Origin: Lama glama
Taxonomy: Eukaryota
Assembly: GCA_028534125.1 (NCBI GenBank)
Contig: CM052828.1
Span: 61,380,001 to 61,444,000 of the forward strand
Direction: 5' to 3'
DNA length: 64,000 bases
Below are positions 2,281 through 5,300 of the stretch, one piece after another. The notes under the pieces are model-generated. The model was not told the DNA's origin. It saw nothing but the letters and a program-made list of their open reading frames with translations, and did not search any database. The translations under genes were made by a program, and so were the position numbers. Numbering within the stretch: the stretch's first letter is position 1; the number at the start of each line of letters is the position of its first letter.

Positions 2281-2356
2281 TCACATGGTATGGGTGGGGA
2301 TCTCAGATTGCTGCCTGATGTAGCTCTGGAAGCTCTTGTCTCCAATGGGGTGCTCC
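2281..2356 (-). CDS. RASA3: RASA3 exon 24 coding part (76 nt incl. TGA), canonical acceptor
   Basis: ccgcag|GGAGCAC...[30 protein letters not shown], matches the orthologous C-terminus in length. Confidence 0.93.
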
Positions 2357-5300
2357 CTGCGGGGAAGCGGGGAGGAGAGGGTGAAGGCGGGTCAGGTCAC
2401 GGTGTGCGCACGCGTGGAGCAGGGGAGTCTTGTCTCCAATGGGGTGCTCCCTGCGGGGGAGCGGGGAAGAGAGGGTGAGGGCGGGTCACGGTGTGCCCAC
2501 ACGTGGAGCGGGGGAGTGGGAGTGGATGGCGCTCGGGCACAGTGGCACCCACGGGAAGTGTTCAGCATGGTGGCTCTGCCACGTTTAAGAAAAGGCAGCA
2601 TTTCTAGAAGGTCGACATGGGTTCTCTCGATAGAGGCTGTTAAGGGGCCTGGAATGTGATGTGAACGTTTGTGGAGCTGGGAGCAGAGATGGGGCAGTGT
2701 CCCTGGGGCCTCTCAGCATCCCGGGCAGCCTGGCCAGAGGTGGGGTCTCTTCCAGAGTCCTCACTTCCCTTCCCTGCCAGACCAAACCCAGGTCTCCCTG
2801 GAAGGAAGGAGGAGGGAGGGAGGAGGGAGGCAGAGGGTCTGGAGGGGCCGCACCGGGACACTGAGCGGCAGGCCTGGAGGTTGAAGTGAGACCCTGCTCT
2901 GAAGCAGGCAGGGGTCTGAGGCAGCCGCTCCCTGGCTCCCCGACATACTCACTGGCTCCCATACTTGGTTTTCTTGAACTTGTCCCGTTTGTACTGCGCG
3001 TGCTCCTGCTCCAAGGCCCCGACCCCAGCGATGACCTGCCTCAGGGTCTTGTAGGTCTCCTGGGGGTCGTCAATGATGAACGTGGAGTACTCCTCCTGCT
3101 CCGGCCCGTCGTACACGGACCTGCTCCCACAGGCCTCTGCGCGTCGGGGAGAGGCGGAGGTCAGCGCTGGGAGCCCAGGCAGGCGGCCCCAGAGCTGCAT
3201 GGGGACGGGCTGACCGTTCGTGCACATGCACACAAAGCAGAGCCACTCCAGGAGCTGGCTCATGCTGAACCCGAGTCCCTGAGGGTCCGACGTCCTGAGC
3301 GCCAGGGCCAGCCCTTCTCCAGGTGACCTGGCTCTGTCCACGCCCACCGGCTCCCCAAGCCAGAACAGGCAGACATCTGTCTGCTCCTGGGCCCAGGGTC
3401 AGTCTGGGGAGATGAACTTGAGGAAAGGGGTGCCGAGCTCCACCCAACACTCGTGAGGACGCCCCACGGCTGGACAAGCGGGGCACACGGTGGACAAGGA
3501 GCCGTCCTTGTGGGGCCACCTCTCAGCCAGTCTGCACCAGCAGCTCCCTAGGACCTCTGTCCCCCCACCTCTCAGCAGGTAAGTCTCTCATCAGACCTCC
3601 TCACTCCTGCCAAAGACCACACGGTGGCCTCTGGGCGCCCACCTGTCTGCTAACCCCTGAGCTGAGTCCTGTACTCTGGGGCCTCGGTGAGCCAGCATCA
3701 GGCCCCCCACCCTCGTCTGCAGCGTGTGCTAGTTCATCGCCACAGAGAGCTTCACTGTCTTTAAATCCAGCTCGGGGGAAAGCTCTTCTTACTGGAAAAC
3801 CTCAAGTTTGTGCAAAGGGAAACTGGGAAGATTCAAAACTTCAAAGGAAAGGGGGTTCCTCACATGAGGAGTAAAGGAGTGGCGACCCGGGGCAACCGGG
3901 GCGAGTGAGCCGCACAGGGTGAGGTCCCGGAGCCAAGCGGCCCTGGCTACCTGCCTGGAGCCCCACTGGTTGTGATGACCAGGCCCCGGCAAGGCCCTCA
4001 AGCTCCAGAGCCTCAGGGATCCCTCTGGGAAGTGGGGGCCACTGAGAGACAGGACAGGAGTCACCGAAGGACCAAGACCCCAAGGTGGGGCGGGACGGGG
4101 TGCCAGCTGCAAGACCCCGGCCGACTCAGCTCTGGGCACTGTGCAGACCGCTTCACAGGGCTGTGTTATAAAACCCTTGGATCAGCCCGGCAAGGTGGGG
4201 GTGGTGCGGCCCGCTCCTCAGGGAGGAGGTCAGGGCTCCCCAGCGTCGATGTGCCGTAGGTCTCGTAGCAGGTGGCAGGCTGGCTCTGAAGGAGACCCGT
4301 GCGTCCTGGTGAGGCCCGTCCCAGGGCACCAAGGAGCGTGGACGGGGGAGGGGTGCTGGGAGAGGCCCCGGATTAGTGGGAGGGAGCAGTTTCTAATTTT
4401 GCAAACATGAAGAAGGGAGGACCCACGGCCAGCGTCAGAGGAAGGCTCGCGACTGGACCGCTGAACAGACTGCGAGCATGATGAGGACCAGACGGCACAA
4501 GCACACCCACTTCCTCTTCACGGCTTCCTGAAACTAAGGCTGGGAACCACTGGAGAGCGCGCGCTCACGCCAGCTCGGCCAGCAGCCTGTGACCGAGGAG
4601 CATACCTTGATGAGGTGGCAACGCGGCACCAAGACCTTCACCGCCCAGATGGGTCTACGTCCTGTCATCTCTGCAGAAGCCCCACATGTCCCAGGGCCCT
4701 GCCTGCGCCCCAAGAGCTACCGCAACTTGGGACGCTGGCCCTCACCTTGCATCTTCTCCAGTCTGCTCATGTACAAGCTGAAGAGGGAGGAGATGCGCTC
4801 CGTCTCCCGGTCCCCGTCGATGTCCAGCTGGATGTTGGCTGGGAGGCCGCTGCCCGAGCACCCCAAGAACATACGAGGGAAGTGTGAGTCGTCACGATAC
4901 AGACTATTTAAAGGTCACTCAAGATGGTAGAGGGACCTGGTGCTGCTCTTGTCCCGGACCAGGGCTGGGGCATTGGTCACGAGCATTTGGAAGTGACCAC
5001 CCACAGCCTTGGAGGTACCCACAGACTTGCCCAGACCTTTCTGCCACAAATAGTACAGACGCCCTGGTTGTGCGCCCTGAAGGGCGGTGGGCTGCCCAGG
5101 AGGGGTCGGTCCCTGTCCCCCGAGAGGCTGTGTGGGCCTCTGCTCCTGCCCCCACCCCAGCGCAGCCTCTAGGGGCAGCGGGACCCAACAGACGTTTATC
5201 CCGCGTCTCAGCTTCAGTGAAGCCGCGTCCCCTGTTCCCCCCTCAAGGCTGTGGGGAGGTCTGTCACTGTTCTCACAAGTCACATGGGGCTCGGGCGCCC

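Follow-up and report, generated by a model that had tools for sequence, protein, structure and literature searches.

Tandem Duplication of the Last-Exon Acceptor of Camelid RASA3: Probably an Old, Tolerated Change with a Minor Alternative Product

Introduction

Short tandem duplications that copy a 3' splice site together with the start of its exon have been described before. In the human CBS 844ins68, such a duplication leaves two competing acceptors in different frames and is tolerated in healthy carriers. This CBS variant is polymorphic and affects an internal exon; use of the proximal acceptor there would meet nonsense-mediated decay (NMD), and G-runs enforce the distal choice. The available parts of two reports give the distal copy as the one used (PMC2630376, PMC1802585). 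The globin substrates 3'D-14, 3'D-55 and 3'D-205 (Reed and Maniatis, as cited in the accessible text of PMC9225289 and PMC5389562) are artificial and were spliced in vitro, and they set a proximal acceptor with a truncated exon against a distal acceptor with the full exon. Where the proximal exon of such substrates measured 14-205 nt, one study had distal splicing only, according to the available part of PMC5389562. Furthermore, USH2A c.3812-3_3837dup is a duplication across an acceptor in which long reads revealed low-level use of the first copy; it copies only 3 intronic nt, which leaves the second AG without a tract and leads mostly to exon skipping (PMC11311777, accessible text). In addition, the intron gain in ATP2A1 is a small intragenic tandem duplication that was neutralised by splicing, by a route that depends on an AGGT from which a new donor arises (PMC3265369, in the part available).

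In this study, the last splice junction of RASA3 was analysed in the window, a stretch of 64,000 nucleotides from the llama, Lama glama (assembly GCA_028534125.1, contig CM052828.1, positions 61,380,001 to 61,444,000 of the forward strand). By its layout, the camelid RASA3 case can be regarded as a relative of human CBS 844ins68: the tract, the AG and the exon start are copied head to tail, the two acceptors lie in different frames, and the duplication is present in the organism and apparently tolerated. No run of three or more G was found between the acceptors, and the likeness is one of layout, not of mechanism. The camelid duplication also differs from that of CBS in being family-wide, in lying at a terminal exon and in having a database model that uses the proximal site. 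It poses the same choice as the globin substrates, but naturally and in vivo, with 23 nt of proximal exon. On the most likely reading, the locus is a natural counterpart of the classic duplicated-acceptor experiment, and its position at the terminal exon should keep NMD from masking the product of the proximal site. Unlike in USH2A, both RASA3 copies keep a tract and a branch motif. The ATP2A1 duplication resembles that of RASA3 in its small intragenic size and its apparent neutralisation by splicing, but the 23-nt exon copy of RASA3 is not followed by a donor. Intron gain by tandem duplication was rejected for RASA3, as no new donor in the duplicated unit is paired with the second AG. A microexon or new intron was rejected as well: the 23-nt exon copy does not end in a GT, and the two GTs between the acceptors give introns of 44 and 55 nt only.

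Results and Discussion

Structure of the Duplicated Junction

A tblastn search with RASA3 orthologues gave 23 exon segments in the window, which fits exons 2-24. On the minus strand, the end of intron 23 is present twice, head to tail, each time together with the opening 23 nt of exon 24. The features of this part of the gene are as follows.

2953-3136, minus strand: RASA3 exon 23 (penultimate), from the tblastn segments; main donor GT at 2952-2951
2963-2964, minus strand: alternative donor GT, lying 12 nt before the main one, whose use drops YGSQ; in the alpaca X4 and buffalo X2 RefSeq models
2428-2516, minus strand: upstream copy, 89 nt (66 nt of intron end and 23 nt of exon-24 start), from sequence comparison; candidate yUnAy branch-point A at 2476, AG at 2452-2451, exon start at 2450, used in the Camelus RefSeq model
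2334-2427, minus strand: downstream copy, 94 nt (71 nt of intron type and 23 nt of exon start), from sequence comparison; candidate branch-point A at 2392 and 2382, AG at 2358-2357, exon start at 2356 (canonical), used in the alpaca RefSeq model
2391-2395, minus strand: micro-duplication of 5 nt, confined to the downstream copy; the upstream copy lacks it, and so does Camelus as judged by translation
2281-2356, minus strand: exon-24 coding sequence behind the downstream acceptor, conserved 24-aa C-terminus, TGA at 2283-2281, the same as the end of the alpaca model
2303-2450, minus strand: frame from the upstream acceptor, 7 shared and 41 new residues, TGA at 2305-2303, from translation
2247-2390, minus strand: third frame, read by Camelus after the upstream acceptor, TGA at 2249-2247; 43 of 47 residues as in the Camelus model
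1129-1134, minus strand: ATTAAA, candidate RASA3 polyadenylation signal, from a motif scan

The two copies differ by six substitutions (five C/T and one G/C), all of them intronic, and by one 5-nt TGACC indel, and the first 23 exonic nt after each AG are identical. Between them, 61 nt match at 95% identity with a spacing of 94 nt, which is not due to chance. The exon starts at 2450 and 2356 are also 94 nt apart and therefore open two frames behind a shared donor after 2953. The locus is single-copy in its own genome (one match), and the duplication was absent from the Tandem Repeats Finder output for the window. The sequence-only reading had described a 94/89-bp tandem duplication with acceptors at 2450 and 2356, and re-reading of the sequence proved this exact; the two C-terminal peptides that it had given, with the upstream TGA, were reproduced in full by translation.

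Splicing Signals of the Two Copies

Scoring of both acceptors and their branch points had been proposed along with the first description of the locus. The upstream acceptor scored 12.3 bits and the downstream one 12.6 bits, near-equal values that both exceed all 22 leave-one-out values (maximum 10.4) of a matrix trained on the 22 other acceptors of the same gene, which is a small training set. The consensus of the branch point is yUnAy. A motif of this type with its A at -26 is found in both copies (CTCAC upstream and TTCAC downstream), and the downstream copy has a second one, CTGAC at -36, which arises from the 5-nt insertion. The CTGAC motif does occur in the downstream copy alone, as first proposed, but the upstream copy has a candidate of its own, and the indel is not the sole source of a branch point.

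The sequences that follow the shared part differ. The 70 nt behind the upstream 23-nt exon piece are C-rich and intron-like, with 3- and 4-mer log-odds of -0.10 and -0.20, whereas the 70 nt at the downstream site are exon-like (+0.16 and +0.17); the log-odds were trained on RASA3 itself, where intron windows gave -0.12 ± 0.11 and -0.24 ± 0.16 (n = 652). RNA folding of 2540-2270 showed no strong structure over the upstream site (z of -1.74, with 12 of 200 shuffles equally good), and the accessibility of the tract was 0.58 upstream versus 0.45 downstream. A structural block of the upstream site is therefore rejected.

Stops in the last exon escape NMD that depends on the exon junction complex (EJC). 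Both stops of the window belong to the last exon, and they precede the sole ATTAAA-type signal near the gene end by 1147 and 1169 nt, so that EJC-dependent NMD is not expected. The NMD-immune stop of the sequence-only reading thus agrees with the established rule, the distance to the candidate poly(A) signal being about 1.15 kb.

Camelid Records and Age of the Duplication

Among the records listed, at least two are camelid RASA3 proteins, one for each acceptor, and both are predicted transcript models rather than reads. The Camelus RefSeq model (P0335; XP_031322255.1, XP_032352453.1 and XP_074234720.1) runs from exon 23 to the upstream, proximal acceptor. Its records are named Camelus dromedarius X1 or X2, with a UniRef entry for C. 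ferus, and the three accessions lie on three contigs. It matches the window in 18 of 18 residues over 2449-2396; from 2390 it follows the third frame, where 43 of 47 residues are identical and the stop is at the same place. The alpaca RefSeq X4 (P0342) matches the window exons, uses the downstream, distal acceptor and has an end identical to the canonical frame of the window. A Camelus record with the canonical tail and the alpaca forms X1-X3 were not among the records listed. The idea that alpaca X1-X3 carry the alternative tail, drawn from the isoform numbering, was dropped, as the numbering is not strictly by length.

The upstream isoform is thus already in RefSeq for Camelus. RefSeq isoform models of this type usually rest on RNA alignments. 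The Camelus model suggests upstream splicing and falls short of proof, because the 23 nt after both AGs are identical and junction reads are therefore ambiguous (12-27% of them at read lengths of 150-75 nt). No published account of a camelid upstream isoform was found at the level of titles and abstracts, in a search that covered few subscription journals. The Camelus X1/X2 models carry a non-conserved tail and are unfit as the reference form of RASA3.

Judging from the translated records, Old World camels carry the same duplication but lack the 5-nt unit. The duplication therefore predates the split of camels and llamas, because the Camelus protein records require it; the available text of PMC13751797 places the split of the Old and New World tribes at 11-25 My. 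The 5-nt unit was most likely gained after the duplication, in the lineage of the window, since both the upstream copy and the downstream copy of Camelus are without it (parsimony). The protein records of pig, peccary, whale and ruminants have canonical tails only, in a comparison made at the protein level. The camelids offer a built-in comparison: the 5-nt insertion, which brings in a branch motif and shifts the frame, is missing from camels and present in the window lineage.

Conservation of the C-Terminal Tails

The canonical type of tail was found in 202 of the 203 fetched proteins that hold the start of exon 24, the exception being the Camelus model; 376 proteins, which are not independent, were fetched in all. 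It is kept from fish to mammals, and positions 1-6, 9, 10, 14 and 15 are invariant (135/135). The tail of the window is identical in 21 of 24 residues to those of whale, cow, warthog and horse, and the other exons tested reached 94-96% (whale, cow, horse and fruit bat); it is no better conserved than these exons. The penultimate residue (2289-2287, minus strand) is Thr in the window and in the alpaca record versus Ser in 198 of 198 other 24-aa tails, and this camelid Ser-to-Thr change may hint at relaxed constraint on the tail.

Loss of RASA3 is embryonic lethal in mice, and a tail deletion abolishes the Rap1-GAP activity, but not the Ras-GAP activity, according to the available part of PMC5290945. 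A wholesale switch to the upstream acceptor would therefore probably carry a cost. No function specific to residues 818-834 was found in the RASA3 literature covered. Furthermore, an AlphaFold2 model of bovine RASA3 built with 42 orthologues was unusable (pLDDT 38.5, pTM 0.25), its helix at 817-827 being untrusted, and a PDB search gave 22 matches, none beyond residue 710, so the tail is uncovered.

The alternative tail is different in the two lineages. It has 41 aa in the window and 58 aa in Camelus, in different frames with 11 residues in common, and the content of P, S and R is 24% and 52%, respectively. The 5-nt unit sets the frame. An alternative frame conserved across the species with the upstream site was not found, as the frames part after 11 new residues. 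A lineage-specific isoform had been proposed at the outset: the upstream acceptor does occur in a RefSeq protein of Camelus, but the 41-aa peptide is not conserved. No protein with the 41-aa tail of the window was found, the fetched proteins included. The 48-aa peptide of the upstream frame had no true match among 5.8 billion clustered proteins (one of three candidates, a Logan ORF, held only the off-frame exon part) and none among 1.84 billion representative proteins; both searches were weak, since a full-length isoform sits hidden inside the canonical clusters, as the Camelus model did. In addition, the exact 23-nt exon-start pattern gave no match in metagenome contigs.

Under neutrality, the upstream AG would be intact with P of about 0.91 and the exon copy with P of about 0.35, and their being intact favours neither a functional nor a neutral reading. 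The selection tests on the AG, the exon copy and the 11 shared codons were powerless. Within the exon-24 coding sequence, the sole difference seen between Camelus and the window leaves the canonical protein unchanged (synonymous) but changes an amino acid in the alternative frame of Camelus (n = 1).

Interpretation of the Two Acceptors

On balance, we favour, with moderate confidence, an old and tolerated duplication in which the working protein comes from the downstream site, while leaky use of the upstream site yields a minor, non-conserved variant that is not a functional switch. A tandem duplication in the common ancestor of Old and New World camelids copied the junction and left two intact acceptors. 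Exon definition would favour the downstream AG, with real exon sequence behind it, and disfavour the upstream AG, behind which the short exon piece gives way to intron-like sequence. Most mRNA would then carry the conserved tail, while the upstream acceptor would yield a minor transcript with a frameshifted one; that its share is minor is what we infer. The distal choice in CBS 844ins68 and in the globin substrates speaks for this reading. This transcript is predicted to escape NMD and might be translated. The extra copy would have drifted neutrally, and the later 5-nt insertion in the llama and alpaca lineage would have altered the alternative tail without being purged. Against a minor share stand the near-equal acceptor scores, the lack of G-runs of the CBS type, the penultimate Thr, and a tail no better conserved than other exons. 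The six RNA runs listed contained just 0.12-0.22 of the sampled words of the locus and are no evidence for either share.

It is hardly credible that an assembly artefact, or an allele private to the individual, accounts for the second copy. The assembly is fragmented (1,072,352 contigs), which would suit an artefact, but about 90 nt of sequence hold 7 differences between the copies, and the Camelus protein records require the duplication, in line with the earlier view that no simple assembly artefact is at hand. Furthermore, 14 of the 24 public runs listed (7 studies and 3 organism labels, with 9 flagged as a possible source) hold 0.98 of the 202 sampled words versus 0.94-0.95 expected for a single copy; the P values of 0.02 and 0.07 for this share represent one test, as the words are shared. 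An assembly artefact is essentially excluded. It also seems unlikely that the upstream acceptor is effectively silent and the Camelus model an alignment artefact. A canonical junction read whose 3' anchor is short can be placed on either copy, and the remainder could be bridged by reads of unspliced intron; carriers of CBS 844ins68 make normal mRNA, and the weak searches above returned no protein with the 41-aa tail. Yet three RefSeq accessions, each from a different contig, give the same sequence of the upstream type, and the upstream AG, tract and branch motif are intact and score equally.

Substantial use of the upstream acceptor, perhaps dependent on tissue, would give a stable RASA3 without the conserved last 17 residues, and the loss of the tail, not the new peptide, would matter. 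The equal scores, the stop in the last exon, the X1 or X2 label of the Camelus model, the retention of the acceptor in both tribes and the substitution of Thr for Ser at a tail position that is invariant elsewhere agree with such use. So does a general preference, where competing 3' sites are at least 20 nt apart, for the upstream one across the transcriptome, as given in the available part of PMC9225289. However, the new tails differ between the tribes in frame, length and composition, drift alone predicts that the site is retained, and the lost residues have neither a specific role in the literature covered nor a usable fold. We regard substantial use as rather doubtful. High upstream use would make the camelids a living test for the role of the conserved RASA3 tail. 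A more speculative and quite improbable form of the idea is an NMD-proof dial, in use for 11-25 My, by which RASA3 would be made without its tail, possibly with weaker Rap1-GAP activity in platelets and leukocytes; the peptide would be irrelevant and hence free to change frame, and the 5-nt insertion of llamas and alpacas would have retuned the ratio through an additional branch point at the canonical site.

Other Features of the RASA3 Locus

The donor of exon 23 that drops YGSQ is in frame. It is used in the alpaca X4 and in the water buffalo X2 (P0159), two of the 376 fetched proteins, and it may be a variant shared among artiodactyls. The alpaca X4 also uses an alternative first coding exon, which lies inside intron 1 at 54291-54172 (minus strand) and matches in 39 of 40 residues. 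Past the other end of the gene, C13orf46 starts 1.5 kb beyond the RASA3 poly(A) candidate on the minus strand (contig position 61379606, just outside the window). The first exon of this neighbour has 100% identity to Vicugna pacos and 98% to the three Camelus species, in keeping with a South American camelid. Two Equus UniRef models (P0129 and P0132) have RASA3 fused to C13orf46, which is a hint of read-through transcripts. In addition, the introns hold minisatellites at 12662-12912 (18-nt unit, 13.7 copies) and at 18036-18509 (45-nt unit, 10.5 copies, 92%), the latter ending about 150 nt ahead of the exon 10 acceptor.
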